A DNA stretch of 63,806 nt, filler included, from Reclinomonas americana ATCC 50394 (lineage: Eukaryota): NCBI GenBank assembly GCA_048213135.1. It is 18 parts of 18 records of this genome, joined end to end, with 100 filler letters (N's around TTAATTAATTAA, not from the genome) between each part and the next. Parts side by side here need not be neighbours in the genome. Positions count along the whole stretch, not along the records: positions 23,569 to 26,223 come from AFZH01022925.1; 17 more parts are not named here. One strand, 5' to 3'. Below the pieces are notes generated by a model that worked only from the letters and a program-made list of their open reading frames with translations, searched no databases and was not told where the DNA came from. The translations under genes were made by a program, and so were the position numbers. Below, piece after piece: positions 177-31,525 of this stretch (position 1 is the stretch's first letter; each line of letters opens with the position of its first letter).

Positions 177-2489
177 GATCTGTGTGCCCCGGATTTCGTG
201 CTGTGTGCCAGCGAGTTGCATCACCTGTGTCGGTGAGTGAGAAAGATGAGAGTCGTGTGCTATCATGCTGGCTTCCTGACAAGGTTGCCGCAGTGAGCAC
301 GTGACGGAGGCTGGAGTGGATCTGTGTGGTGATGGAGTCACATCGCTGGCCACGCTGAAGGAGGCTCCACGACGAAACCAGATATCGTACGGCAATGTGA
401 AGGTTGCGTTCTTTGGTCGCTCGTCATACAAGTCGCCAGTGATGTTGACTTGTGAGAGGCACCACAGATCACTTGCCCACTGTGCCACGCACCCATGGTT
501 TGTGTGTTTCGGTGTGCTTCTCTCTCCGTCTTGCACACCCCGACTGTTACTCTCTCCCTTGCCCTCAGTGCCTTCCCTCAGTTTGCCTCCCTTTTCTCCA
601 CCCCTCCTTCTCTGTTCTCTTCTCTTTTCCTCTCCCTCCCTCTTCAACTTCTACTCTCTCGCCTCCTCACTACCTCTCCCGCGTACGTTGTCGCCCATCC
701 CTTTCCCCTTCTGTGGTGTCTTTCTCTCTCTCTCTCTCTTGTCCCTCTCATTTTCTCTGTCGTTCTCTCATTTTCTGTGCACCCTGTCTCCCGCTACCTC
801 CCTCTCATTCCAGGTGTCTTCCCTCGTTCTCCTCGCACCCTCTTACTCTCAGCCTATAATCTCACTCTGGATGAACAGACGGTGGGCGACTATTACCGCA
901 CACATGGCCTCACGCAGTGCCCGTATGCCTGCGAGCGGTGTGGACAGCAGATGACACTCGATCGCACGGCGGAGCACGAGTGGAGTGGATGCTTGCGCGA
1001 GTGTCCACTCGGGTGTGGAGCGAGGATGGCGCTGAGTGAGATGGTGGAGCACAGCTGGAGTGGGTGCATGCGAGTGTGTCCGCGTGGGTGTCAGCAGCTG
1101 TGCTCGCTGGCGGATATGCAGAGGCATCTTGGTGAGTGCTTTGAAGGAGAGAGAGGCGTGACTTGACACTAATTGTTCTCTTGTGGCAGAAACGGAGTGC
1201 CGACTGCAGCATACAGTGTGTCGTGGTGGTGAACTGGGGTGTGGATGGCGTGGAATCATTGGCGAGAGGGAGGAGCATGAGCGAGTGTGCGATGTGTTGC
1301 GAGTGGAGCGACCGCTGCGAGAGGTGAGTTTGGAATGATGCTGCTGGCCAAATCATGCTGCTGATGTAGCTCGCGCGCGCGTGTGCACAGCTGCATGGCC
1401 GAGTGCGAGAGCTGTCACAACTGGTGGCTCAGGAGAGAGAGGCAAGGCTAGCCGCCGATGAGCGACTGGTCGATTGTGTGGGAATGCTTGTCGAGTGTCG
1501 TAATCAGCTGGCCGGTGAGCGACGTGCGAGACAAGCGACAGATGAGCGTCTTGCTGTATGCACGGAGCGGCTCGCTGTGTGCACTGAGCAACTTGGATCC
1601 GAGCGACGCATGCGGGAGGCACTCGAGAGAGGTGTTGCTGAGGTCTGCGGTTTCTTTCTATGGGTCATGTACGATCATCGGTCCTAATAATGTCTCGTGT
1701 TCGTCTGCAGCTGCTTGATCGTCTCAAACCGCTGGAGGAGCGTGAAAGAGCGATCCACGAACGAGAGACAGATGAAAGAGAACGGCTAGCGAGAGAGCAG
1801 GAGGAGCGAGAGCGGCAGGCCAGAGAGCGAGAGGAGCGAGAGCGGCAGGCCAGAGAGCGAGAGGAGCGGGAGCGATCGGAACGGAAGATTGACAGCGATC
1901 TGCTGAGTGCGGCGGATGGACGAGTGGTGCTGCAATGGGTGCGGCAAGCACGTGGTGGTGGGAGTGTGCCCAAGTTGACGCTGCTGTTTAAGGGCAGTCG
2001 AGATGGATTTGCGGCCGCCACATTCCATCAGCGATGTGACAATCGTGGGTGAGTGATTGAGGGAAGGGAGAGCTTGTTGCACACGGTGATTGATTGGTGT
2101 GCAGAGCGACGCTGACAGTGGTCAAGTCGTCGACGGGACGAGTGTGTGGCGGATACACACCTGTGTCGTGGCGGTCAGGAGACGCGTGTACAGCTGACCC
2201 CTCCGGCGCCAGTTATTTGTTCTCAGCATCGTGGAGTGGTGCAAGTGCCCGACGCTTTGCACTGAAGGACGATCAGAAACAGAAGGCCGTTTATCACCAC
2301 TCTAACTATGGACCAGTTTTCTACGGTGGAAGTGACCTTTGCTTGTTCGACAAGTGCAACAGCGACAACAGCAGCTACAGCAACCCTCTTTCGTACCAGA
2401 GCACCGACGGCGGAGCATTGGACAGGACGACACTGATGGGATCGCGGAACTTCCAAGTGGCCGACTACGAAGTCTTTCTCGTTGAGTGA
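177..2489 (+). CDS. RING-like/TRAF-type zinc finger - coiled coil - TLDc protein, copy A (5' partial, multi-exon)
   Basis: Spliced exons DLCAPDFVLCASELHHLCR|EHVTEAG..NVK|ITCPLCHAPM|TVGDYY..CPYACERC..EHEWSGCLRECPLGC (TRAF-like Cys/His fingers), E/R-rich coil, then TLDc motifs LLFKGSRDGF..FHQRCDNRG|ATLTVVKS..GGYT..W..GPVF..FQVADYEVF*; GT-AG introns. Confidence 0.85.
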
Positions 2490-3009: not shown

Positions 3010-5680
3010 NNNNNNNNNNNNNNNNNNNNNNNNNNNNNNNNNNNNNNNNNNNNTTAATTAATTAANNNNNNNNNNNNNNNNNNNNNNNNNNNNNNNNNNN
3101 NNNNNNNNNGAGAGAGAGCGAGAAGAAGAAGAGGTAGGGCAAGATGCAGAGCCCGCATTCGATGCTCCTCTCTCTCTCTCTCTCTGTTGTTTGTGTGCAT
3201 TGATGGCACTGACAGTGCCGTGAGATGATGATGACTTGCACAACAACAACAGCAACAACATACACGACGTCGTGTTCTCTCTCTCTCTCTTTCCCGCTAT
3301 TGAGAGACACTGATCTCTGCATCGCGCAGGACCTGTGTGCTCCGGATTTCGTGCTGTGTGCCAGCGAGTTGCATCACCTGTGCCGGTGAGTAAGTGAGGA
3401 GAGTAGCGCTTCATGCTGGCTTCCTGACAAGGGTGACGCGCAGTGAGCATGTGACAGAAGCTGGAGTGGATCTGTGTGGCGATGGAGTCACATCGCTGGC
3501 CACGCTGAAGGAGGCCTCGCGACGGAACCACATATCCTTTGGCAACGTGAAGGTTGCGTTCTTTGGTCGCTCGTCATACAAGTCGCCAGTGATGTTGAAT
3601 TGTGAGAGGCACCACAGGTCACTTGTCCACTGTGCCATGCACCCATGGTTTGTGTGTTTCTTTATCCCTCTCCCTCCATCTTGCACACTCCGTCGGTTTC
3701 TCTCTCCCTTGCACTCAATACCTTCCCTCAGTTTGCCTCCCATTTCTCCACCCCTCCTTCTCTGTTCTCTTCTCTTTTCCTCTCCCTCCCTCTTCAACTT
3801 CTACTCCCTCGCCTCCTGTCTACCTCTCCCTGGTACGTTGTCGCAGATCCCTTTCCCTTTCTGTGGTGTCTTTCTCTCTCTCTTGTCCCTTTCATTGTCA
3901 GTGTCATTCTCTCATTTTCTTTGCACCCTGACATTCTCTCCTTCTATCTTTCGCTGCCTCTCTTGCCCTCCTTTCATGTATGGTGTCTTCCCTCGTACTC
4001 TTCGCTCCCTCTCAATCTCATTGTCTAATCTGTCCTCTCACTCTGGATGAACAGACGGTGGGCGACTATTACCGCACACATGCTCTGACGCAGTGTCCGT
4101 ATGCCTGCGAGCGGTGTGGAGAGCAGATGACACTCGATCGCACGGTGGAGCATGAGTGGAGTGGATGCTTGCGGGAGTGTCCTCTCGGTTGCGGAGCGAG
4201 GATGGCACTGAGTGAGATGGTGGAACACAGTTGGAGTGGGTGCATGCGGTCGTGCCCACGTGGATGTCAGCAGCGCTGTTCATTGGCGGATTTGCAGCGG
4301 CATCTTGGTGAGTGCTGTGAAAGAGAGAAGAGTGTATCGTGACACTGATGTGGTGTCTCTGTGGCAGAAACGGAGTGCCGACTGCAGCACACGGTGTGCC
4401 GAGGTGATGAACTGGGGTGTGGATGGCGTGGAATCATTGGGGAGAGGGAGGAGCATGAGCGAGTGTGCGACGTGTTGCGAGTGGAGCGACCGCTGCGAGA
4501 GGTTTGTTTTCGGAGATGGGCAATGCTGCCTGTCATTCGTGCAGCTAATGTGGGTCGTACTTGTGTGCGCAGCTGCATGGCCGAGTGCGAGAGCTGTCGC
4601 AGATGGTGGCTGAAAGCAGGGAGCAACTGGCTCAGGAGAGTCAGGCGAGACAAGCTGTTGAGGAGCGACTGGTCGATTGTGTGGGGATGCTTGTCGAGTG
4701 TCGCCAGCAACTCACTGGTGAGCAACGGGCGAGGCAAGCGACAGATGAGCGGCTCGCTGTGTGCACCGAGCAACTAGGATCGGAGCGTCGCATGCGTGAA
4801 GCTCTCGAGAGAGGAGTTGCTGAGGTCTTTTGCGATGAATTTGGCTTGTACATCGCTCCTCTTCTCATTTCATTCTCCTGTTTATCTGCAGCTGCTTGAT
4901 CGTCTCAAACCGCTGGAGGAGCGTGAAAGAGCGATCCAGGAACGAGAGACGGCTGAGCGGGAGCGGCTGGCCAGAGAGCAGGAGGAGCGCGAGCGGCAAG
5001 CCAGAGAGCGAGAGGAACGGGAGCGGCAGGCCAGGGAACAAGAGGAGCGGGAGCGAGCGGAACGGAAGATTGACAGTGATCTGCTGAGTGCTGTGGATGG
5101 AAGAGTGGTGCTGGAGTGGGTGCAGCAGGCGCGAGGCGGGAAGGTGCCCAAGTTGACGTTGCTGTTCAAGGGCAGTCGAGATGGGTTTGCGGCAGCCACA
5201 TTCCATCAGAAATGTGACAATCGCGGGTGAGTGGTTTGGAGAAAGGGAAGAGTGGTTGTTTGCTCGGTGACCGACGTGGCTGTGCGCAGAGCGACGCTGA
5301 CTGTGGCCAAGTCGTCGACAGGACGAGTGTGTGGCGGATACACACCTGTGTCGTGGCAATCTCCCGCAATAGGCGCTTACGCCGTCGATTCATCTGGCAC
5401 CAGCTTCTTGTTCTCGGCGTCGTGGAGTGGAGCAAGTGTCCGACGCTTTGCACTCAAGGACGATCAGAAACAATATGCCGTTGTTCACGGTTCTGGATAT
5501 GGGCCTACATTCGGTGGAGGGCACAGCCTTATCCTGTATGACAACTGCAACAGCAACAGCGGCAGCTACAGCAACCCTGTCTCGTACCAGAGCACCGACA
5601 GAGGAGCATTGGACAACACGACACTGATGGGATCGCGGAACTTCCAAGTGGCCGACTACGAAGTCTTCCTCGTTGAATGA
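2640..5680 (+). CDS. RING-like/TRAF-type zinc finger - coiled coil - TLDc protein, copy B (spans linker at 3054)
   Basis: ATG 2640; exon 1 ends EYLCPVCL|gtgagt; after the gap the exon series matches copy A, ending ..FQVADYEVFLVE* at 5680. Confidence 0.85.
3010..3109. other. Artificial contig linker (N-run + TTAATTAATTAA + N-run); first of 17
   Basis: Identical 12-mer with stops in all frames at 3054, 8509, 12318, 13419, 17617, 20149, 23513, 26268, 28191, 31470, 33733, 39080, 43094, 44928, 48488, 56139, 58533. Confidence 0.97.
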
Positions 5681-18344: not shown

Positions 18345-19997
18345 CGTGTTACGCCTTGACCTATGTGGCTCACGTGGGTTCTTCCTGATGGCGAGACGAC
18401 GGCCTCCAACATGCGCTCATTAAACCACTTGCCCCAACAAGATGCAGATGGTGTTCCAGAGGGCGGCGGAAGTGTCCTGATCGATTGCGCCGCCTCTGGT
18501 GTTCACCACACACACCACTGCACACACCAGTGCACAGTGCTTGCTCTGCTCTCCACCAACACCTTGCTCGGTCTCTGGAGTACACGCTGTGTGCGTCAGT
18601 GGCGAGAGCACCCACTCTGTCACCTTGCGGTCGATGCGCGATCGTGTTTCGCGTTGACCTGCGTGGCTCACATGGGTTCTTCCTGATGGCGAGACGATGG
18701 CCTCCAACATGCGCCCATAGAACCACTTGCCCCAACAAGATGCAGATGGTGTTCCAGAGGGTGGCGGAAGTGTCCTGAACCAGAGACTCTTGATTGCGCC
18801 GCCTCTGGTGTTCACCACACACACCACTGCACACACCAGTGCACAGTGCTTGCTCTGCTCTCCACCAACACCTTGCTCGGTCTCTGGAGTACACGCTGTG
18901 TGCGTCAGTGGCGAGAGCACCCACTCTGTCACCTTGCGGTCGCTGCGCGATCGTGTTACGCCTTGACCTGCGTGGCTCACATGGGTTCTTCCTGATGGCA
19001 AGACAACGGCCTCCAACATGCGCCCATAGAACCACTTGCCCCAACAAAATGCAGACGGTGTTCCAGTGGGCGGCAGAAGTGTCCTGAACCAGAGACTCTC
19101 GATTGCGCCGCCTCTGGTGTTCACCACACTCGCCACTGCACACACGCATACACAGTGCTTGCTCTGCTCTCCACCAACACCTTGCTCGGACTCTGGAGTG
19201 CACGCTGTGTGCGTCAGTGGCGTCAGCACCCACTCTGTCATCTTGTGGTCGATGCGCGATCGTGTTACGCCTTGACCTGCGTGGCTCACATGGGTTCTCC
19301 CTGATGGCAAGACGACGGCCTCCAACATGCGCCCATAGAACCACTTGCCCCAACAAAATGCAGATGGTGTTCCAGTGGGCGGCGGAAGTGTCCTGATCGA
19401 TAGACACTTGATTGCACCGCCTCTGGTGTTCACCACACTCACCACTGCACACACGCATACGCAGTGCTTGCTCTGCTCTCCACCAACACCTTGATCGGAC
19501 TCTGGAGTGCACGCTGTGTGCGTCAGTGGCGAGAGCACCCACTCTGTCACCTTGCGGTCGATGCGCGATCGTGTTTCGCCTTGACCTACGTGGCTCACAT
19601 GGGCTCTTCCTGATGGCGAGACGACGGCCTCCAACATGCGCCCATAGAACCACTTGCCCCAACAAAATGCAGACGGTGTTCCAGAGGGCGGCGGAAGTGA
19701 GACACTTGATTGCGCCGCCTCTGGTGTTCACCACACTCGCCACTGCACACACGCATACACAGTGCTTGCTCTGCTCTCCACCAACACCTTGCTCGGACTC
19801 TGGAGTGCACGCTGTGTGCGTCAGTGGCGTCAGCACCCACTCTGTCATCTTGTGATTGATGTGTGATCGTGTTTCGCCTTGACCTACGTGGCTCACATGG
19901 GCTCTTCCTGATGGCAAGACAACGGCCTCCAACATGCGCTCATGAAACCACTTGCCCTTTCTCGGTGGAGGCGGTGTTCCAGGGGGCGGCGGAAGTG
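18345..19997. repeat. Tandem satellite, ~309-bp unit, ~5.3 copies
   Basis: ttgacct-(c/t)gtggctcac recurs with spacings of about 298, 309, 309, 309, 298; the two short units each lack 11 nt near ggaagtgtcctga. Confidence 0.95.
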
Positions 19998-20029
19998 CGC
20001 GCGCTGGTGTCCTGCGTCGATCTTTTGTG

Positions 20030-20091
<62 letters not shown>

Positions 20092-20204
20092 GACGACGTA
20101 CGTANNNNNNNNNNNNNNNNNNNNNNNNNNNNNNNNNNNNNNNNNNNNTTAATTAATTAANNNNNNNNNNNNNNNNNNNNNNNNNNNNNNNNNNNNNNNN
20201 NNNN

Positions 20205-21696: not shown

Positions 21697-23006
21697 TCAC
21701 AGGCATGGTGTGCCAAAGGCGCGAATGCGGGAGATGCCACCGTCGGGGAACATGGTCAGACGCAGGTGGGTGATTGGACCAGCCTCCGGGTCGGCGTCAA
21801 AGTGATGAATGTGATCGGCGCGCAGCTGCGTGCGTGGCAACACCGGACGCCAGTTGAAAATCGGAAGCTCGCCATTCAACATGTGCAAGTCGTCCGTATC
21901 CGCCTGGCAGCCATCAACCTGTTCCGCACGCGCGCCGGTCGATGAGACCTCGTAAGCGCATCATCAAACTGGAGCACAGAACTCACCTGGCATGACTCCG
22001 GGTAGTTGCCCTTGAAGTGTGCCGTGTCGATCACCAACCGGCGAACCACGCCCGTCGTGCCGAGCTTGAGGATGGCCCAGTCGGAACCCGGAGCCACGAC
22101 CAAGCCCGAGGCCTGGTCCATGACCAGCACCGGCGGTCGCGTCAGCTTGCGAGCCGTCTCCCATCCGTCGCCCATGTTGATGCCACGGCCGGGTTGAATG
22201 AGGTTGCGCGGCTCGCCAAAGTGCTTGTCGCTGCAGCCGAGCGCCACACCGCCAGACTCGACGGCCGCCAGGTCCACTTCCTCATCGCCAGCGCGCCACT
22301 GCACCGCCACGTCGCCCCACACACGAAGGCGCGCAATGCCACCGTCGGGGAACATGTTGAGGCGCAGATGCGTGTACCGCTTGTCGCTGTCGACCTCGAA
22401 GAACTGGCGGCGCGAGTCCTCGTAGCCCGGCTCGAGCGGAGTGAACGGCACCAGCTCATCCCACTTGTCACTCTCCAAGCGATTGGCCAGCTCGAATTCC
22501 TCCGGCGTCGCCGCCACGCCGCACCGCTTCCCCCAGCCACGCAGCGGCGCCAGACGCTCATCGTCGGCACTCAAGCTCGTGGCGTACACACTGGCGCGCG
22601 GTGCATGATTTCCCGTGAAGAACGCCGTGTCGATCTCAATGCCGCGAATGCGCCCCGGCATGCCCAGCTCCAAGATGCACCAATCGTGACCGGCGGTGCG
22701 ACGCCGACGCGACTCCCACCCATCCATCCACTTGCCGAACGGCGTGTACACATCCACACGGAACTCGGGCTCGCTCGACAACATGAGACGATAGGCGCCG
22801 GCAAACCACTCGTCGCTGGCAAACAACACTCGCCCACCCGTGCGCTCCGCCGCCAAGTCGGTGAGCGGGCGCGAGCTCAACCACTCGGGAACCGCGCCCA
22901 CTGCGCCCGCGCCAACCGGGCGCTTGGCGCCGCCGCGGATCACCACACACGGGACCTTTTGCGCCACCTCATCCGTCACCACTCCCGACACGTGAATGCC
23001 TTCCAT
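21697..23006 (-). CDS. ALLC: Allantoicase (allantoate amidinohydrolase)
   Basis: Two allantoicase repeats: SDEWFA..GKWMDGWESRRRR..GHDWCI..DTAFFTGN..THLRLNMFPDGGIARLRVWG and SDKHFG..MGDGWETARK..DTAHFKGNYPESC..THLRLTMFPDGGISRIRAFG; one intron at 21919-21986. Confidence 0.97.
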
Positions 23007-23078
23007 GATTGCGCTTTGAGTGACGAGCGAGTGATCCTGTCCTGCTACTTGCATTATCTCAAGTTAAGTTCCGAAGCA
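23007..23078. promoter_or_regulatory. 72-bp divergent intergenic region, putative bidirectional promoter
   Basis: Lies between the allantoicase ATG (23006, -) and allantoinase ATG (23079, +); TTATC (GATAA on -) at 23054-23058. Confidence 0.6.
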
Positions 23079-23805
23079 ATGCGCGAGGGACCTGCGCTGC
23101 AGCAACGCAGCAGCACCAATGCGAACAACGCCAGCAACAACAACACCAACACCGCCACGGCGACGACGACTGCTGTGACGACACGAAGTGCACGTCATGC
23201 GTGGTATCTGCACCCGGCGCTGTTTGTGACTCTGCTGGCAGTGGCCAGTGTGGTTCTCCTGCACAACCACATGTCGCATGAGGTGCCAGCTAGTGGTACT
23301 GTCGAGCCTCAGGAAGTAGAGAAGGTCGAAGAGCCACCAGTGCCGCCAGTGGCGGAGGGCAAGATCCGACCATTTGCGCTCGTGTCTCGTCGCGTGCTGA
23401 CCGACAGTGATGACGTGCGTGCGGCGGCGGTGCTGGTCAACGAGGACGGCATTGTGGAGCGCGTGCTANNNNNNNNNNNNNNNNNNNNNNNNNNNNNNNN
23501 NNNNNNNNNNNNTTAATTAATTAANNNNNNNNNNNNNNNNNNNNNNNNNNNNNNNNNNNNNNNNNNNNGTGTGGGATCCCGACGCGCCCTACACCATTGA
23601 TCCGTCGCGCACGTTCCACCGACACAAGCGCTCGCCGTTTGACAATGTGCACGTGCACGGTGTGATCCACAAGACGTACGTGCGCGGCCGCCTGGTGCAC
23701 GTGGACAGCGAAGAGGATATTGCGGAGGAGGAGAGTGTCGAAACGTCGGGCCCGGGCAAGCTGATGTATCGCGACCCGGCCACTGGCAACATCCGTCTCG
23801 ACTGA
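23079..23805 (+). CDS. Allantoinase (amidohydrolase); middle lost in the gap
   Basis: N-terminal hydrophobic segment, then FALVSRRVLT..AAVLVNEDGIVERV; after the gap VWDPDAPYTID..FHRHKRSPF..VHGVIHKTYVRGRLV, typical of allantoinase/dihydroorotase-family C-termini; gene context favours allantoinase; metal-binding His residues not visible. Confidence 0.8.
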
Positions 23806-23917
23806 GGTCGAAGCGTGCGCATGAACGACTTGGGGGGGAGCGTTTTTATCTCTCGTGTGACGTTGCAATGCAACACGCCATTTTTTGTGAGTCGCTCTGC
23901 TCCTCCGAATCCACTCA

Positions 23918-25683
23918 TCACTCGCTCGCTCCCATGCTCTCCTCAAAGGCCGCCACCGCGCCCGAACCGTCCTTGTATCCCAAATGAGCAAGAGCCTCCT
24001 CCAGAGCGGCCAGAGCCTGTCGTGGGTGCGCAGAATTCGGTCTCGCCGATGGACCTGGATGCAAACAACAGCGCACACATGATTAGTTGTCCACATGCAC
24101 ACACAAAAGCACTGCGAGGTTGCACGCAACCCATGGTGCCGATGCGGAAGTAGCGCGTCTTGATCTCCTTGTGCAGACCACCGGCAATAACGACTCCGCG
24201 CGCTCCCACCGCCGGCAGCAGGTTCGGCAGGGTGACACTTTCGGGTCCGTCGGGCAGGTAGACGCACGTCAGTGTGTTGGCCGCATGCGCAGCGTCAGTG
24301 GGCACCAGGCGCAGACCGAGCGCAGCAATGGCGGCACGCATGGCACGACCGACACGACGCTGCTCGTCAAAGCGGCGATCGATACCGCCATCCACATTCA
24401 GCAGCTGGTCCAGGCCCACCGACAGCTGCTGCACGAGATTCACCGCTGGCGTGGCAAAGTAGCTCGGCGTACCAGCCTCGTAGGCCTTCATGATGGGCTC
24501 CCATCGTGCCCAGTCGGCGTAGTATGAGGAGCAGCGGCCCTTGGCGGTGCGTGCCTGCAAGGCCCGCGGACGAACCATCAGCAGGCACAGGCCAGGCGGC
24601 ACACCGATGCATCTGCGGGCGTGTTCAGCACGGTGACGCAAGCGGACGAGGCGGAGTACAGCAACGGAACTTTTGCGAGCCCGTCATGGCCATATCCACG
24701 CCCCACTCTTGCATGCGCAGCTCCTCGCCACCAATGGAGCACACTGTCACACACACACACACACACACACGCACACACACACACACCAGAATGAGTACGC
24801 GCGCGCTGTGCACGGGCAGAAAGTCGCGCACTTACCTCCATCGACAGCCACCAGCGTATCGGGCGACACCGCCTGCACCAACTCGGCAATCGCCTTCGGG
24901 TCCGTGCGCACACCAGTCGACGTGTCCACGTGCGTGACGGTGATCATCTTGAACGGACCCTCCGTCTCCAGCAACTGGCGCACAAGTGCCAGCGACGGCA
25001 CTCCGCCAACACCAGCCTCGGCACGCGCATGAACCACCACTGCACCATACGTCTGCATATGCACCTCTACTTGTAAGGAAAAAAACAACATACACCACCA
25101 ACACGGCAATTGCACACCTCGAGGCAATCGCCAAAGCTGCACACAGCGTCAGCATCTCAGCTTTGCTATAGACAGAGCGCACAATGCAAGACGAGACGAC
25201 TCACCTGTCACCAAAGTACCTGCAACACCGCAGCGCAGCGGGTGTGAGTGCAAGCAGTGGTGGTGGTGACAATGGAGCTCTATTGTGGCGACACTCACCC
25301 TGTATTCACCACCAACACCTTATCGCCGGCCTCCACCACATTCGACGCAATCGAGTCCCACCCGAGACTCCCGGAGCCCGTGATAACAAACGGCTGACCG
25401 TCGGCTGCCAGAAACACATCGCGCTGCCCGAGATGCAATCACAAATCATCAGACTTGACCTTTTGTCTCTCTCTCTTGCGCTCTCTCACGTCGCACGTGC
25501 CATCTGTGTCAGACACTTGCCAAACACTCGAATGAAGCCTGCATCCACATGCGAGGTGCCGCCGAGACGCACACCGCCCATCAGCACATCCTCATCGAAC
25601 TCAATCGGACCCGGAATCATCAGTGTGCGTCGCCCCTCGGCAAGCACACTGGGAGAAGAAGAAGAAGAAGACGAGGAAGCCAT
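23918..25683 (-). CDS. AGX1: Class V PLP aminotransferase, alanine:glyoxylate aminotransferase (fungal AGX1-like)
   Basis: TLMIPGPIEFDEDVL..SHV; QPFVITGSGSLGWD; TGYFGDSFGDCLETYG; TVTHVDTSTGV; VDGVCSIGGEELRM..TGSQK (PLP lysine)..GVPPGL; SYFATPAVNL; AGGLHKEIKTRYFRIG..ALEEALAHLGY; multi-exon. Confidence 0.9.
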
Positions 25684-25751
25684 GTTATCAACGCAAGCTG
25701 TGTGTGAACGAAGTCCTTCTGTCCGTCGACTTTGTCATTCGTTGTTGTCAC
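25684..25751. promoter_or_regulatory. 68-bp divergent intergenic region, putative bidirectional promoter
   Basis: Lies between the aminotransferase ATG (25683, -) and ureidoglycolate lyase ATG (25752, +); TTATC at 25685-25689. Confidence 0.6.
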
Positions 25752-26223
25752 ATGAGCTCTCGCGTCGTGCTTCCTGTGGAGCCTCTCAGTCGCGAGGCAT
25801 TTGCGGCGTTTGGGGATGTGATTGAGCCGGAGAATGCCGAGCGCACGTACCCGATCAATGCCGGCACCACCACGCGGTTCCACAATGTGGCGCCGGCGGT
25901 GGAGGTGCATCCGGAGGTGGGGCGCGGTCGCACTCTGCTGTCGATTTTCCGCGCCCAGCCGCGCCAGTTGCCGATGCGCATTGAGATTATGGAGCGGCAT
26001 CCGTTGGGCAGTCAGGCGTTTGTGCCCATGGTCAGTGAGCACGGCCTGATGCCGTTCTTGGTGGTCGTCGGCCCGCCGGATCCAGAGTCTGCCGAGGTTC
26101 ATCTCGCCCCACTCCTCTGCTCTGCTCTGGAGTGCGTCTAACCCCCATGTACAGTGCGACACGAGCAAGCTGCGTGCATTCATCACGGATGGGCGGCAGG
26201 GCGTGAACTATGCGCCCGGCACG
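25752..26223 (+). CDS. allA: Ureidoglycolate lyase (AllA/DAL3 family), 3' partial
   Basis: EPLSREAFAAFGDVIE..INAGTTTRFH..SIFRAQP..MERHPLGSQAFVP..FLVVVG|..LRAFITDGRQGVNYAPGT; intron 26097-26154 with ctaac branch site. Confidence 0.93.
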
Positions 26224-26323
26224 NNNNNNNNNNNNNNNNNNNNNNNNNNNNNNNNNNNNNNNNNNNNTTAATTAATTAANNNNNNNNNNNNNNNNNNNNN
26301 NNNNNNNNNNNNNNNNNNNNNNN

Positions 26324-27410
26324 AAAGATGTCGGCGATAGCCGCCGCTTGAGCGGACTTCGCACGAGCGCGCGGCCGCGGAACTTGGCCGCTGCCGACGG
26401 CGACGACTGCACCGCCGGTTGGCGGTTCCTACGGATGCGACAGAGGAGGAGATGAGCCCGCGCACGGGAATGCGGAAAAATACATTGACCAACCGTAATC
26501 TATCGTCGTGATCCACGGCATCGGCAAAGTGAATGATGAATGTGGCCATGCGATGGTACTCCTTCTGCAGCTGCACGGCATGCGAGGGTGGTGGAGGTCA
26601 GCAGCGATACGCCAATCACAACCGTCGCGACGATGCACGGAACCTTTGGACTGTACAACCAACTCTGCAGTCGACTCTTGCAAATGTGCAGGCGACTGCG
26701 TCGAGCCGGGTCCCATGCCAGTGGCGACGCAGCAGCCAGTGCGTCTCGCAAGTCGGCGCGCGTCAACACGCTGCAGCAAGCTGTGCGCAACAAAGCGCAG
26801 ATATCAGACGACAGAAACATACCGACCAGCATGTCACAGTGTGTCATCATCAAACGCAGTACCTGGCCAGTCGCGATCGGGAAACGGAACGTTGAGAATG
26901 AGGCACAGTGCATGCACCAGCACATAGTACTCCTCTGTCGGGTACGCTTGCACCACACAGCGGATCACATATCGCGTGTACTTTTCGAGTTCCTGACTGC
27001 TCCTCCCCCCACAGTGCGTGTGAGCAACGCCACTGTGTGCACGTGTACAATGGACACTGCATGCAGCCACGCAACTGCGCAAGGCGCATCAAGTCCTGCA
27101 CATGATGCGACGCACCACCACCTGCAGTGGCCATCATCCGCTTCGTCATCGCCATCAACTCATCGCCATTCTGCGCCTCCTCGCTCTCTCTTCCCGCCAC
27201 CGCGCCTGTGCGAATGACCACCGCCGGTGATGACAGCAGCATGCCAGTGTGCATGGACGACATGGGCGACAGTGGCGGGGGCGACAGAGAGGAGGAGGGC
27301 GAGGGTGAGCGCGCGCCATGCTGCACATCGTCGTCGCCCGCGACACCGCCTCGACTCCCGGCTGACTGACGGCGCGTCTCTAGCCGCCGCACAGTGGCGT
27401 CCGAGAGCAT
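26324..27410 (-). CDS. Uncharacterised multi-exon protein, divergent from DDB1 (3' partial)
   Basis: Exon-like segments ELEKYTRYVIRCVVQAYPTEEYYVLVHALCLILNVPF and QLQKEYHRMATFIIHFADAVDHDDRLRLVNVFFRIP; start uncertain. Confidence 0.45.
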
Positions 27411-27514
27411 TCTCTCCACACGCTCTCCCGCGCTGCCTTTTCTCTGTCTGCATTCCGACTGATGAACCAACCCCAGTTGTCTTTGTGGCCCTTTGTGTGC
27501 GGGCTGGTGGTGTG

Positions 27515-30500
27515 ATGGCGACCTCGTACGTGGTGACTGCGCAGCGGCCGACGTGCGTGTACGACTCGATTACTTGCTCGTTGGTGGGCGGTGCGAGTCT
27601 CAATCTGGTGCTGAACAAGTGCACTTCGATCGAGATCTACTCGGTGTGCAACGGAGGCTTGCAGCCGCTCGAGGATGTGCCGGTGTATGGCCGCATTGCG
27701 TCGCTGCATGCCTTCCGTCCGCCAGTTGCGTGTTTGTGTGACACTCCGCGTGTGCTGCTCGGTGTTTGCGATGCGTGCGTGTGTGAGGACATCTCCCTCT
27801 GCTGCGCCCTGCGGGCACTGCTTCTGTCGCTTCGCGTGTTTGACCGGCGTCTTTTGCGGCTGTGTAGGGACACGAACAGGACCTGTTGTTCTTCTTGACG
27901 GAAAAGTACAGCTATGCGGTGTTGCGGTACAATGCGGCGACTCGGGCAATGGAGACGTGCGCCTATGGTGACGCGCAGGTGCGTTTGTGTCACACCGTGG
28001 TGTCTCTGAGGACGTTAGTGGTGGTGGTGGTGTGTGTGACACGTGCTCTCGTGCCTGAGCAGGATCGCATCGGACGACCGACGGAGAAGGGACCGACAGG
28101 AGTGGTGGATCCGCTGTGTCGCATCATTGGACTGCACATGTACGACNNNNNNNNNNNNNNNNNNNNNNNNNNNNNNNNNNNNNNNNNNNNTTAATTAATT
28201 AANNNNNNNNNNNNNNNNNNNNNNNNNNNNNNNNNNNNNNNNNNNNGTGTGTGGGAGAGGATTGGTGATAGAAGCGTGTGACAGTTTACATTGATGCGTT
28301 TCTTCCAGACGAGCTTGGCCTCCTCCATCTCGTACCTCGACAACTCGTTTGTCTTTGTGGGCTCCTGCTACGGCGACTCGCAGCTCATCCGGCTGAATGC
28401 GGAGAAGAACATTGACGAGTCCTACGTGGAAGTGGTGGACACATTCGTGAATCTGGCCCCGATCCAAGACATGTGTGTGGTGGACGTGGAGCGGCAGGGT
28501 CAGGTTCGCGGAATGCACACATTATATACATGGAGCACGAATGAGTGCAGTGCTGTGCTCACGCGGTCTCCCCCCCATTCTCACACAGGGTCAACTTGTC
28601 ACGTGCTCGGGCTGCTTCAAGGACGGCTCACTGCGCATTGTTCGCGTGGGTGTCGGAATCAATGAGCAGGCCGAGATCGAATTGCCGGGTATCAAGGTGC
28701 GCAGTGCGCTCTGCCACTTGCAGGTCTCCAGCCGGTGCGTAACCATAAGAGTCGTGCAGGGCATGTGGAGTCTGCGACCGAGTTCAGTCGACGACCGTGA
28801 AAAGTACATTGTGTTCTCGTTCATTGGCGAGACTCGCATTCTGGGCATGAGCGGTGCGTGCTTTTTTTGTTTTTGCTCCTAGTGCTCGTATTTGCTTATC
28901 GACTTTCTTCTGTGTGTGCGCAGATGCACAAGTCATGGAGGAGATGGATATCGACGGCTTCGACCTGAGTCGACAGAGCCTGTACTGTGCCAACACCACC
29001 AACGACTGTGCACTGCAAGTGACAGAGGTGGCAGTTCGACTGATCAGCCTGCAAGAGCCAGCGCTTCTCTCCGAGTGGTCACCACCGAGCGAGTGGACCA
29101 TCAACCTTGCGGCCTCCAACAATGGCCAGTTGGTGTTGGCAGTCGGTGGTCACACCCTGGTCTACTTGCGCGTCGAGGGTCGTGAGATTGTGGAGATCAG
29201 GTCAGTGCGTGTCCTCAACTGAACTGTCGGCGGCGGGTGATCTTACTCGTGATGTGCAGTCGCCGAACCATGGAGCGTGAAATCTCGTGTGTGGATCTGA
29301 GCTCGCTGAGCAGCGAATCCGACGACAGTCCTGTGTGCGCCGTTGGCCTGTGGGACGACATCAGTGTGCACATTGTGCGACTGCCTGGCTTTGAGCCGGT
29401 GACACAGGAGAATCTTGGCGGAGGTCTGTTGTCTCGTCGGGTAGAAGGAGAGTGATGTCGTGGTGCCACTCACATGGTCGCCGCTTGTACTTTCCAGAGT
29501 ACATTGCACGCTCGGTACTGCTGGCGTCCTTTGAGGGCATCTCGTACCTGCTGTGCGGCTTGGGTGATGGTCACTTTTGCCATTTCCGCGTCGATCTCGA
29601 CACGTACGCACTCACTGATCGGAAGCGCATCTCGCTCGGCACCAAGCCAACCATGCTGCACCGTTTCACTCACCGGGTACGTCACGCGGATTGTTGTTGT
29701 TGCGAGTACGGGAGCTTGAGGGTGGCCCTGAACATCGCGTGTCAACGCTCACAGGGTCAATCGCACGTGTTCGCCGTGTCGGATCGACCGACTGTTGTGT
29801 ACTCCAACAGCAGCAAGCTACTGTACTCAAACGTCAATCTGCGCGAGGTCGGCAGCATGTGTTCGTTCAATTCAGACTCGTCACCCGACTGCCTGGCTAT
29901 CGCCACCGATGCCAAGTTGGTCATCGGCACCATTGATGACATTCAGAAGTTGCATGTGCGCTCCGTTTACTTGGGCGAGCAGCCGCGGCGAATTGCACAT
30001 CAAGTTCCGTGTGGCGCGAGACGAGACTGAGAGAAGGAAAGTGTTGCTGACGTATGCCGTGTAGGAAGCGAGTCAGACGTTCCTTGTCGCCACGTCGCAG
30101 TTCCGTTTGGACGAGACGGAGACGGAGCACGAGTACAGCTTCCTGAAGCTGTTTGACGAGAAGACGTTTGACGTGCTCAATGAGCACGCACTAGAGGAAA
30201 TGGAGACTGTGTTTGCTGTCCAGTCGGTGCATCTGGGCGACGACCCCACACCGTACTATGTCGTCGGTACGGCGGTAGTGAGCGACGAGGTGAGTAATGA
30301 CTGCGTTTTTATCGGCGAGCGTTGTTTGTGTGTTTTTTACTGAATACTGGTACAGGAGCCGGAGCCGACCCGCGGCCGCATCTGTGTGTTCGAAGTAAGA
30401 GACCGCTCGCTCGTTCTCGTCACCGCTCGCACAACACGCGGAGCCGTGTACGCATTGCGTTCATTCTCCGGCGGCCGTCTGCTGTCGACAATCAACAGCC

Positions 30501-31340
30501 GAGTTGCGGATGCGCCTTCCGAGTTTGTGCATTCATTTCCGTGTTCCTTACACCCGTCGTGCCATGCGGCTAGTTGCAAATGTGGCGCTGGGAGGATCAG
30601 GAGGGTGGCTCGCACGAGCTCTCCTCCGAGGCGCAGGCCAGTGGCCAAGTTCTCAGCCTCTCGGCAAAGACTCGTGGCGACTTTATTCTGTGCATGGATC
30701 TGATGAAGTCGGTCAGCGTCTACTTGTACGAGGCCACCGATGCTCAGTTGAAGGAGGTGAGATCCCAACCGCCCGTCTCGCGCAACCCATGTGACATTGA
30801 TTTGTGCCCGCACATAAAATATAGGTGGCACGCGATCACAGCTCCACATGGCCAACCGCCTGCGAGTTCATCGATGACGACGCCTTCCTCGCCGCCGACA
30901 CTGGCAACAATTTGTACTCGCTGCGAAAGGTGACGCTGAGCTGTCGCATGGTGTTGTACAGTACACGTCGATTGACACGTTGCTGTGGTGTAGAACCCGG
31001 AGGCCACCTCCGAGGAGGAACGCAAGAAGCTGGACATTATCGGCAAGTATCACCTTGGTGATCAAGTGAATGTGCTCACACCAGGTCAGTTGCTGTCGCC
31101 CGTCATTGCTCGTGTGTTGTTTGTGGTGACTGACCCGCGGCGGCATGCAGGCTCGTTGGTGATGAAGTTGCCGGAGTCTGAGGGCCTCTCGGTGTGCCCC
31201 ACGATCCTGTACGCGACTGTCAGCGGTGCCATTGGACTCGTCGCACTGCTGCCGGAGGAGGACTTCCGGCTGCTGCACGCCGTGCAGCGCAAGCTCAACG
31301 AGGGCATTATTGGCGGTGTCGGTGGCCTCAGTCACGACCA
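27515..31340 (+). CDS. DDB1: DNA damage-binding protein 1 (CUL4 adaptor), many introns, interrupted by gap, 3' partial
   Basis: [120 protein letters not shown]. Confidence 0.97.
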
Positions 31341-31525
31341 GTTGTGTCTCTCTTTTGCTCATGATTCAGTGATGAGAGTGCGCCTCCTCATTGCTCTTTC
31401 TCTCTCTCTCTCTCCTACTTTCCCCNNNNNNNNNNNNNNNNNNNNNNNNNNNNNNNNNNNNNNNNNNNNTTAATTAATTAANNNNNNNNNNNNNNNNNNN
31501 NNNNNNNNNNNNNNNNNNNNNNNNN

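Follow-up and report, generated by a model that had tools for sequence, protein, structure and literature searches.

A candidate glyoxylate outlet in a eukaryotic allantoin gene cluster: an AGX1/archaeal-type aminotransferase gene divergent from ureidoglycolate lyase

RESULTS

A class V aminotransferase gene of the AGX1/archaeal-AGT type (hereafter AGT) was found to be the third of four closely spaced genes, the others encoding an allantoicase, an allantoinase-like enzyme (its gene split by a gap) and a ureidoglycolate lyase (UGL). The reading we lean toward is that an intact enzyme of this type was recruited to a compact four-gene allantoin cluster, in which it would convert glyoxylate to glycine. 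As the outlet for the glyoxylate that the pathway is predicted to release, the AGT is a plausible candidate, and this role survived each available test. The physical linkage of an AGT to allantoin genes is the new aspect here, the use of purine-derived glyoxylate by AGTs being already known. Throughout, the window means the whole 63,806-nt stretch of DNA that was analysed, a draft scaffold of eukaryotic origin in which contigs are joined by 44N+TTAATTAATTAA+44N linkers; the coordinates of the features are collected in Table 1.

Table 1. Coordinates of the AGT gene and of the neighbouring allantoin genes, counted along the window.
Feature	Position	Strand	Details
AGT gene (AGX1/archaeal-AGT type class V aminotransferase)	23918..25683	-	8 exons, 416 aa; gene model, junction alignment, profile and PDB ranking
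AGT exon 1	25501..25683	-	61 codons; GC donor for intron 1
AGT exon 2	25299..25423	-	125 nt; GSGS(L)GWD motif
AGT exon 3	25205..25219	-	15-nt micro-exon, ..YFGD..
AGT exon 4	25118..25136	-	19-nt micro-exon, ..FGDCLE
AGT exon 5	24836..25052	-	217 nt; THVDTSTGV motif and start of VDGVCS
AGT exon 6	24671..24743	-	73 nt; GSQK with PLP lysine
AGT exon 7	24131..24612	-	482 nt, 160 in-frame codons; YFATP and YFRIGTMG
AGT exon 8	23918..24054	-	includes stop codon; C-terminus ...EESMGASE
Divergent AGT-UGL spacer	25684..25751	.	68 bp between start codons, head to head
UGL (DAL3/AllA type) exon 1	25752..26096	+	PF04115 E 2.9e-31; NCBIfam ureidoglycolate lyase 6e-32
UGL exon 2	26155..26223	+	PF04115 positions 103-124, E 1.4e-4; cut off before C-terminus by linker gap at 26224-26323
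Allantoinase-like cyclic amidohydrolase, C-terminal end	23569..23805	+	NCBIfam TIGR03178 allantoinase 3.3e-6
Same allantoinase-like gene, N-terminal part	23079..23468	+	runs into gap; Atlas leads to amidohydrolase N-terminal domains
Allantoicase	21697..23054	-	PF03561 7e-77; 57-61% identity to stramenopile allantoicases

The AGT gene is intact and interrupted by seven introns

The contig that bears the AGT gene spans positions 23569-26223. With the ATG at 25683 and the stop codon at 23918-23920, a coding sequence of 1251 nt could be assembled on the minus strand, and the gene called at this place in the initial annotation is accordingly real. The introns are 58-92 nt long and have GT-AG ends, except for intron 1, which is of the GC-AG type. 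Other possible donors of the GT type were inspected by eye for this intron, and none kept both the frame and the alignment to CLTQM/RDVF, so the GC donor stands. When the spliced product was compared with 10 homologues (identity 49-55%), it aligned over all seven junctions, the only gaps at a junction being due to five extra residues in a single homologue (P0002). The first of the two micro-exons is required to restore a conserved GYFGDSFG block that the oomycete proteins have as well. Relative to the bacterial homologues, exon 1 adds a Ser-rich N-terminal extension of 14 residues, while the C-terminus falls at the same end point as theirs.

Bacterial contamination was rejected as a source because the AGT gene has seven introns of spliceosomal type. 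A foreign DNA contig of 333 nt, unspliced and from a single DNA-like run, is 97% identical to the gene and runs from within exon 6 through intron 6 into exon 7. Of the seven differences listed for it, five are intronic (intron 6) and the two exonic ones are both synonymous, a pattern that fits purifying selection.

The predicted protein groups with glyoxylate aminotransferases

Against a profile of 15 homologues, whose members carry PF00266, the AGT scored 511.6 bits (E 6e-158; profile positions 4-380 of 392), a match far beyond chance. The window protein keeps 83 of the 91 columns that are invariant among the 15 homologues, including those holding VDGVCS (residues 184-189) and GSQKC (residues 208-212). 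In YFRIGTMG (residues 365-372) the Arg is conserved, and Thr stands where all the homologues have His (RIGHMG), one of the eight changed columns. We take GSQK, VDGVCS and YFRIG to be the elements that, in AGTs of solved structure, provide the PLP lysine, the Asp and the Arg binding the substrate carboxylate. Searched singly against Pfam, four AGT exon pieces gave no match at E ≤ 0.01.

Comparison with AGX1, AGXT and PucG was made by HMMER score ranking against the PDB, together with a tree of the AGT clade itself. The largest exon, exon 7, matched yeast AGX1 best (2bkw, 3.9e-21), followed by 3zrp (8e-19), 6pk1 (6.1e-8) and PucG (3isl, 4.6e-5). With the clade profile, the top scores went to the Sulfolobus AGT (3zrp, 355 bits) and AGX1 (2bkw, 348 bits), and the lower ones were 231 (SGAT), 228, 219 (PucG), 193 (human AGXT) and 166 bits (HpxJ). 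The initial description of the gene as AGX1-like agrees with both rankings, by which the closest solved structures of the predicted protein are bona fide glyoxylate aminotransferases. AGX1 and the Sulfolobus solfataricus AGT share a class V, fold-type I subgroup with the window AGT, and their SQK, VD..CS, YFATP and Y.RIG.M motifs align with it; the window protein nevertheless resembles the oomycete/bacterial clade to which it belongs far more than either of them.

Within that clade, a quick maximum-likelihood tree placed the window AGT as sister to the oomycete AGTs (SH-aLRT 100). The oomycete proteins, among them those of Thraustotheca (P0001), Achlya (P0002) and Saprolegnia (P0015), are 51-55% identical to it, and they have in common with it the GYFGDSFG block and a QKCIGVP block, both missing from the bacterial homologues. 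A search of metagenomes for close AGT relatives, with exon 7 as query, gave 597 pattern matches, of which 0 were confirmed.

The AGT gene lies among allantoicase, allantoinase-like and UGL genes

The AGT was initially described as lying head-to-head with a glyoxylate-producing lyase, and the neighbour did prove to be a UGL of the PF04115 family, starting with an ATG at 25752 on the plus strand; its second exon, after an intron at 26097-26154, continues the same Pfam model as the first. The spacer between the two start codons presumably acts as a bidirectional promoter for both genes, which could thereby be co-regulated. A shared promoter motif was considered and rejected: each divergent spacer holds one WGATAR-like site, and one hexamer is common to the spacers, but this is near the chance count and the sites abut the start codons.

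On its other side, the AGT gene converges with the allantoinase-like gene, the stop codon of which (23803-23805) lies 112 bp from that of the AGT. One contig thus carries the AGT, the UGL and the allantoinase-like C-terminus, and the neighbouring contig is tied in via the split allantoinase-like gene, of which only the two ends are present, the middle falling in the linker gap at 23469-23568. The C-terminal fragment scored 26 bits with TIGR03178 against a cut-off of 358, with dihydroorotase next, and gave weak dihydropyrimidinase/hydantoinase matches in the PDB (E 0.13-0.3). Neither fragment had a Pfam match, the N-terminal part, which has a hydrophobic segment at residues ~43-61, had no NCBIfam match, and a homologue search with the allantoinase-like fragment found nothing. 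The allantoicase gene points away from the allantoinase-like one, the distance between their start codons being 24 or 72 bp, and has at least two exons (~23054 or 23006 to ~21975, and ~21880 to 21697).

We also searched the window for genes known from the yeast DAL cluster. No Pfam family for malate synthase, allantoin permease or racemase was found among stop-to-stop ORFs of at least 110 aa (267 + 2), nor in 17 further pieces (16 of 22 shorter flank ORFs plus UGL exon 2), a scan that could miss such a gene if it lay in a gap or in short exons. The window yielded no further AGT, and no allantoate amidohydrolase among its ORFs of at least 110 aa. The initial formula of an aminotransferase, not malate synthase, fits what was found in the window; it cannot be extended from there to the organism, the rest of whose genome may encode a malate synthase or another AGT.

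Proposed role of the AGT and alternative readings

Allantoicase gives ureidoglycolate and urea, which is established pathway knowledge (available sections of PMC13751858). With UGL and allantoicase both identified by Pfam, the pathway is therefore expected to yield glyoxylate directly, with no ureidoglycine. The allantoinase-like enzyme, allantoicase and UGL would together break allantoin down to glyoxylate and two molecules of urea, and the AGT, transcribed divergently from UGL, would transaminate this glyoxylate to glycine with Ala, Ser or Asp as amino donor, a choice that cannot be read from the sequence. Such a reaction would remove the reactive aldehyde and salvage its carbon, the job done by the malate synthase DAL7 in the yeast DAL cluster.

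The strongest competing reading, although an unlikely one in our judgement, is that the AGT is a general-purpose glyoxylate/serine aminotransferase, serving glycine-serine metabolism or glycolate-derived glyoxylate, and a chance neighbour in a gene-dense region. The oomycete orthologues are unlinked to allantoicase, and the protein should therefore have a life outside purine catabolism; moreover, only a single AGT copy was seen in the window. Unrelated neighbours are close too, a Sel1 gene lying only ~100 bp away, and since intergenic distances are short throughout the stretch, the 68-bp spacing alone is not special. However, the AGT gene does not sit at the edge of the cluster, but between the allantoinase-like gene and UGL, with a spacer common to it and the latter. 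With one or a few AGTs among ~10^4 genes, adjacency to UGL by chance would have odds of roughly 10^-4 to 10^-3, and the product of this particular neighbour is the predicted substrate of the AGT. These points favour the glyoxylate outlet over chance proximity.

It is very improbable that the AGT, as a class V transaminase, acts on a substrate pair other than one with glyoxylate, such as pyridoxamine-pyruvate or 2-aminoethylphosphonate-pyruvate, and is unrelated to the pathway. The NCBIfam models for pyridoxamine-pyruvate transaminase and PhnW/AEP transaminase do come second and third for exon 7 and the homologues, but far below their cut-offs, these matches amounting to 51-193 bits against cut-offs of 360-600. 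The best NCBIfam model was that of the BhcA aspartate-glyoxylate enzyme (NF045640), which scored 172.6-239.2 bits with the homologues and 55.5 bits with exon 7, far below its cut-off of 650 bits. By far the closest characterised proteins are glyoxylate aminotransferases, and the genomic context would supply glyoxylate.

Least credible is a PucG/HpxJ-like (S)-ureidoglycine-glyoxylate aminotransferase, turning ureidoglycine into oxalurate as in the purine clusters of Bacillus and Klebsiella: PucG (B. subtilis, 3isl) and HpxJ (K. pneumoniae, 3nnk) are the aminotransferases known from purine clusters (PMC13751858, in the sections available), belong to the same class V superfamily, resemble the window AGT in lying in a purine/allantoin cluster and in using glyoxylate as acceptor (predicted here), and PucG is still detected by exon 7, but both score far below AGX1 and the Sulfolobus AGT with the clade profile. 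Their clusters use allantoate amidohydrolase (pucF/hpxK), as stated in the same sections of PMC13751858, whereas the window cluster has an allantoicase; with no allantoate amidohydrolase found in the window, ureidoglycine should therefore not be made locally.

The linkage looks lineage-specific

None of 80 bacterial AGT-homologue loci had allantoicase, UGL or allantoinase fragments within ±8 kb, and none of 80 metagenomic allantoicase loci had any AGT relative. At the latter loci UGL was present in 14/80, and allantoinase-like relatives, just upstream of allantoicase, in 46/80. For the loci examined, the idea that the cluster descends from a bacterial operon was rejected. In the oomycetes, AGT and allantoicase lie on contigs of unequal length in all seven species listed for both proteins. 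The linkage of the AGT to the allantoin genes hence looks lineage-specific, and not like a by-product of ancestry.

C-termini and compartment

As first read from the spliced sequence, the AGT lacks an SKL-type PTS1: its gene model ends in ASE, with no [SAC][KRH][LM]-type tripeptide. The window allantoicase ends in ...RIRAFGTPCL and likewise has no PTS1-like tripeptide (PCL), while PTS1-like ends are the rule among named stramenopile allantoicases, at 23 of 27 (19 strict, 4 loose). The missing signal on both proteins fits a non-peroxisomal pathway, and a site of action outside the peroxisome is probable for the AGT and for at least the allantoicase; the absence of a canonical PTS1 is also compatible with peroxisomal import. 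The oomycete AGTs carry a Cys-rich C-terminal extension of ~50 residues (10/10 examined), the end of which, a hydrophobic helix plus basic residues, resembles a tail anchor. The window AGT stops before it.

A more far-reaching scenario, which we put forward tentatively and with less confidence than the glyoxylate-outlet role, is that the host lineage, a relative of oomycetes and ochrophytes, independently assembled a DAL-like cluster, in which an AGT gene that already existed was relocated beside UGL and transamination to glycine, not malate synthase, came to dispose of glyoxylate, while the end of the pathway left the peroxisome, the allantoicase losing its PTS1 and the AGT being without the oomycete tail anchor.

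Comparison with the yeast DAL cluster and other systems

The yeast DAL cluster consists of DAL1, DAL2, DAL3, DAL4, DAL7 and DCG1, and its malate synthase has been explained as a means to dispose of excess glyoxylate (both in the accessible parts of PMC3646786, PMC13751858 and PMC10120013). The window resembles it as a eukaryotic cluster with an allantoinase (here allantoinase-like), an allantoicase, a DAL3-type UGL and a putative glyoxylate consumer. In the DAL cluster this consumer is malate synthase, which forms malate and needs acetyl-CoA, whereas in the window it is an aminotransferase predicted to form glycine. Further differences are that the window sequence showed no recognisable permease or racemase, that the intron-bearing genes are arranged as two divergent pairs, and that the host is not a fungus, with AGT and allantoicase nearest to stramenopile proteins. 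AGX1 itself, unlike the window AGT, lies outside the DAL cluster (PMC13751858 and PMC3646786, as far as their available text goes).

Clusters for primary catabolism in eukaryotes are described for yeast only in the available portions of PMC3646786, PMC13751858 and PMC10120013, with DAL as the textbook case. A full-text literature search, with most subscription journals outside its scope, found no description of a eukaryotic allantoin cluster that contains an AGT. If our reading is true, a second eukaryotic cluster has formed around the same intermediate with a different detoxifying enzyme, and would serve as an independent replicate of the DAL argument. Such a cluster would strengthen the view that genes become linked so that the removal of a reactive intermediate matches its production. 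Under the more far-reaching scenario above, it would be a convergent second case, this time in a non-fungal eukaryote, of genes clustered around a toxic intermediate. For this lineage, purine-breakdown carbon is predicted to end in glycine rather than malate, and there is a hint that clustering was accompanied by a change of compartment.

The value of the case thus lies in genome organisation and its evolution; the chemistry, an AGT acting on purine-derived glyoxylate, is not new. For Nephromyces and Cardiosporidium, AGXT has been proposed as the glyoxylate outlet (urate to glyoxylate to glycine and pyruvate), and it is expressed above malate synthase, which is also present (available sections of PMC6320678). 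That proposal is based on transcriptomes of an apicomplexan, with no physical clustering stated in those sections, and the chemistry it proposes is the same as that proposed here for the window.

A spliced aminotransferase gene within an allantoin gene cluster

The window, a eukaryotic draft scaffold, consists of contigs of 2-8 kb joined by 17 linkers (44 N, TTAATTAATTAA, and 44 N), and the aminotransferase gene (AGT) lies on the contig at 23569-26223. Its open reading frame, from an ATG at 25683 to a stop at 23918-23920 on the minus strand, was readable only with seven introns of 58-92 nt. All seven have an AG acceptor and six a GT donor; the exception, intron 1 (25424-25500, minus strand), is of the GC-AG type with the donor GCACGT. 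The 416-aa product aligned continuously with ten homologues over all junctions, with junction gaps only where the homologue P0002 has five inserted residues, and the two micro-exons together restored the conserved block GYFGDSFGDCLETYGA. Against a profile of 15 homologues, the product scored 511.6 bits (E 6e-158, positions 4-380 of 392), and 83 of the 91 columns invariant in these homologues were kept. The initial annotation had given the same coordinates, strand, and C-terminus (...EESMGASE*), and the spliced gene model showed it to be exactly right in these.

Part of the stretch was found in a single public run, DNA-like, as one unspliced 333-nt contig approximately 97% identical over 24445-24736. 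Five of its seven listed differences from the window fell inside the 58-nt intron 6 (binomial tail for at least 5 of 7, 0.0045, in a small sample), while the two exonic differences were third-position and synonymous, a pattern that hints at independent support for the gene model.

The cluster order was allantoicase (reverse), an allantoinase-like gene (forward), AGT (reverse), and the ureidoglycolate lyase gene UGL (forward), flanked by a Sel1-repeat gene and DDB1. UGL has a 58-nt intron, and its exon 2 matches PF04115 positions 103-124 before being cut by a scaffold gap. The allantoinase-like gene starts on the preceding contig (ATG 23079), its middle falls in the gap between that contig and the AGT contig, and its C-terminal end converges on AGT with the stops 112 bp apart. 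The top NCBIfam match of this cyclic amidohydrolase end was allantoinase TIGR03178 (3.3e-6), and the gene is a probable allantoinase. Malate synthase, permease, urease, and a second class V aminotransferase were not found among the 269 stop-to-stop ORFs of at least 110 aa in the window, and tblastn of the window with two AGT homologues gave no match outside the AGT locus.

Features of the window, with positions, strands, and remarks
Feature	Position	Strand	Remark
AGT exon 1	25683-25501	-	gene model
AGT exon 2	25423-25299	-	gene model
AGT exon 3	25219-25205	-	15 nt, micro-exon
AGT exon 4	25136-25118	-	19 nt, micro-exon
AGT exon 5	25052-24836	-	gene model
AGT exon 6	24743-24671	-	gene model
AGT exon 7	24612-24131	-	gene model
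AGT exon 8	24054-23918	-	gene model
UGL, DAL3/AllA type	ATG 25752	+	PF04115 2.9e-31; NCBIfam 6e-32
Allantoicase		-	PF03561 7e-77; divergent from allantoinase-like gene, 24 or 72 bp between the two start codons
Allantoinase-like gene, start	23079-23468	+	N/T-rich low-complexity stretch, then hydrophobic segment (residues ~43-61)
WGATAR-like site	23054-23059		allantoicase spacer
WGATAR-like site	25685-25690		AGT spacer
DDB1/CPSF160-type gene	27218-31425	+	multi-exon, over three contigs
Repeat-containing frame	18373-20103	-	592 residues, stop-free
TLDc-domain ORF	2094-2486	+	PF07534, 8.7e-10
TLDc-domain ORF	5231-5677	+	PF07534, 1.3e-12

Family and relatives of the aminotransferase

Four separate exon pieces of AGT gave no Pfam match at E ≤ 0.01, and no NCBIfam model was passed by the AGT clade, the best being BhcA (Asp:glyoxylate), where the scores were 172.6-239.2 bits and the cut-off is 650. 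Searched alone against the PDB, exon 7 matched yeast AGX1 (2bkw, E 3.9e-21), Sulfolobus AGT (3zrp, 8e-19), Arabidopsis SGAT (6pk1, 6.1e-8), and PucG (3isl, 4.6e-5). The solved structures were also ranked by a profile of 15 AGT relatives, which gave 3zrp 355 bits, 2bkw 348, SGAT 231, Anabaena AGT 228, PucG 219, human AGXT 193, and HpxJ 166. In the alignment, AGT retains the lysine of SQK, the aspartate of VDGVCS, and the arginine of YFRIG, which we take to be residues with catalytic roles in AGT structures; the His in the RIGHMG of homologues is Thr in the window's protein. The structure ranking and these retained residues place the predicted product among the class V aminotransferases, in the AGX1/archaeal-AGT subgroup, but do not tell its amino donor.

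A homologue search with exon 7 yielded 509 proteins at E ≤ 1e-5, and the comparisons rest on the best 120 of these. The top listed matches were from oomycetes (Thraustotheca 59%, Achlya, Lagenidium, and Saprolegnia 58% each, over exon 7), with Myxococcota and Chloroflexota proteins also among the best listed (54-57%), and no protein identical to the window's AGT was among the matches listed. A quick ML tree was built from 73 rows, comprising AGT itself, 26 named matches, and every second unnamed match of 300-470 aa, with other listed rows omitted. In it, AGT was sister to 10 oomycete and 2 unnamed proteins (SH-aLRT 100), and the bacterial rows all lay across the split from this group; the long end branch of AGT (0.56) makes its exact position less sure. 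For the window's allantoicase, too, the best matches were stramenopile proteins, with 61% identity in Tribonema, 59% in Ectocarpus, 57% in Nannochloropsis, and 54-57% in oomycetes. The host is thus a eukaryote with stramenopile affinities, and the collections searched contained no sequenced organism close to it.

Origin of the linkage

Of the bacterial loci encoding the closest prokaryotic AGT homologues (best 80 of 532 confirmed, ±8 kb), 0/80 had a relative of the allantoicase, the UGL, or the allantoinase fragments found in the window. Among metagenomic loci with allantoicase relatives (best 80 of 581 confirmed), AGT relatives at E ≤ 1e-5 were found in 0/80, UGL in 14/80, and an allantoinase-like gene in 46/80, as relatives of the window's fragment that end shortly upstream of the allantoicase. 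In all seven oomycetes listed for both proteins (Thraustotheca, Achlya, Lagenidium, Pythium oligandrum, Hyaloperonospora brassicae, Nothophytophthora, and Phytophthora lilii), AGT and allantoicase were on contigs of differing size, the sole basis for concluding that they do not share a contig there. Because of these two null results and the oomycete contig separation, AGT would thus have joined the allantoin gene set in the window's lineage, and would not derive from a bacterial operon or an oomycete arrangement among the loci examined.

One metagenome contig (L081, 10856 bases) encodes an allantoicase 57% identical to the window's, the other metagenomic loci (best 80 of 581) showing 41-48%. 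It may be of eukaryotic origin; its flanks within the 10856 bases contained no AGT, UGL, or allantoinase-like match.

Subcellular location

The AGT product ends in ASE, and its only N-terminal extra relative to bacterial homologues is a 14-residue Ser-rich extension. All ten oomycete orthologues examined (P0001, P0002, P0005, P0015, P0040, P0050, P0056, P0069, P0078, and P0092) carry a C-terminal extension of approximately 50 residues, with a Cys-rich stretch (..GCPVP.(K/R)CQ..), a helix of hydrophobic residues, and a basic terminus, which looks like a tail anchor and is absent from the aligned window and bacterial proteins. The C-terminus of the window's allantoicase, encoded at 21697-21760 on the minus strand, is ...RIRAFGTPCL*, with no PTS1-like tripeptide (PCL). 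PTS1-like ends (SRL, ARL, GRL, or similar) were present in 23 of 27 named stramenopile allantoicases, strict in 19 and loose (GRL, PRL type) in 4. Two cluster members therefore lack signals found in their relatives, which fits the non-peroxisomal location first proposed for AGT but is not proof of it.

Proposed route of glyoxylate

The established pathway, as outlined in PMC13751858 and PMC3646786, runs from allantoin to allantoate, to ureidoglycolate and urea, and to glyoxylate and urea. The cluster's three catabolic enzymes would perform these steps, and AGT, by its predicted activity, would convert glyoxylate to glycine. Since allantoicase is present and not allantoate amidohydrolase, no ureidoglycine would be formed, and a PucG-like role for AGT is unlikely. 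The AGT and UGL start codons lie 68 bp apart, and we infer co-regulation through this divergent spacer, although a spacing of approximately 100 bp is also seen beside unrelated genes, making the distance alone weak evidence.

PMC3646786, PMC13751858, and PMC10120013 give the DAL cluster of yeast, which includes the malate synthase DAL7, as the eukaryotic example, and state that the allantoin genes of Aspergillus nidulans and Cryptococcus are not clustered. From expression data, PMC6320678 proposes that in Nephromyces purine-derived glyoxylate probably leaves mainly through AGXT. No description of AGT inside a eukaryotic allantoin cluster was found in the full-text literature, coverage of which was incomplete. 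The initial proposal of an aminotransferase as glyoxylate sink agrees with all sequence tests run and is partly supported.

Additional features of the window

Near the start of the allantoinase-like gene, the mean Kyte-Doolittle value of the hydrophobic segment reaches up to 2.1; this possible signal anchor hints at a membrane or secretory location for the enzyme, the first of the pathway. In each divergent spacer, one WGATAR-like site adjoins or overlaps a minus-strand start codon (that of AGT, and that of allantoicase if its start is 23054), and both share the hexamer CTGTCC; these occurrences are near chance level, and start-codon context alone may explain them. Directly downstream of the cluster, the DDB1/CPSF160-type gene encodes RSE1/DDB1 beta-propellers and a CPSF_A region.

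The repeat-containing frame, for which Pfam gave no convincing match, comprises about four near-identical units of approximately 130 residues (..WNT(V/I)CILLGQVVLWAHVGGRRLAIRKNPCEPRRSRRNTIAHRPQGDRVG..), which at the DNA level makes a tandem repeat with a unit of approximately 400 bp; the end of the frame, at the edge of the contig, is a (GA)n microsatellite. The two TLDc-domain ORFs, approximately 3 kb apart on neighbouring contigs, may be tandem paralogues.
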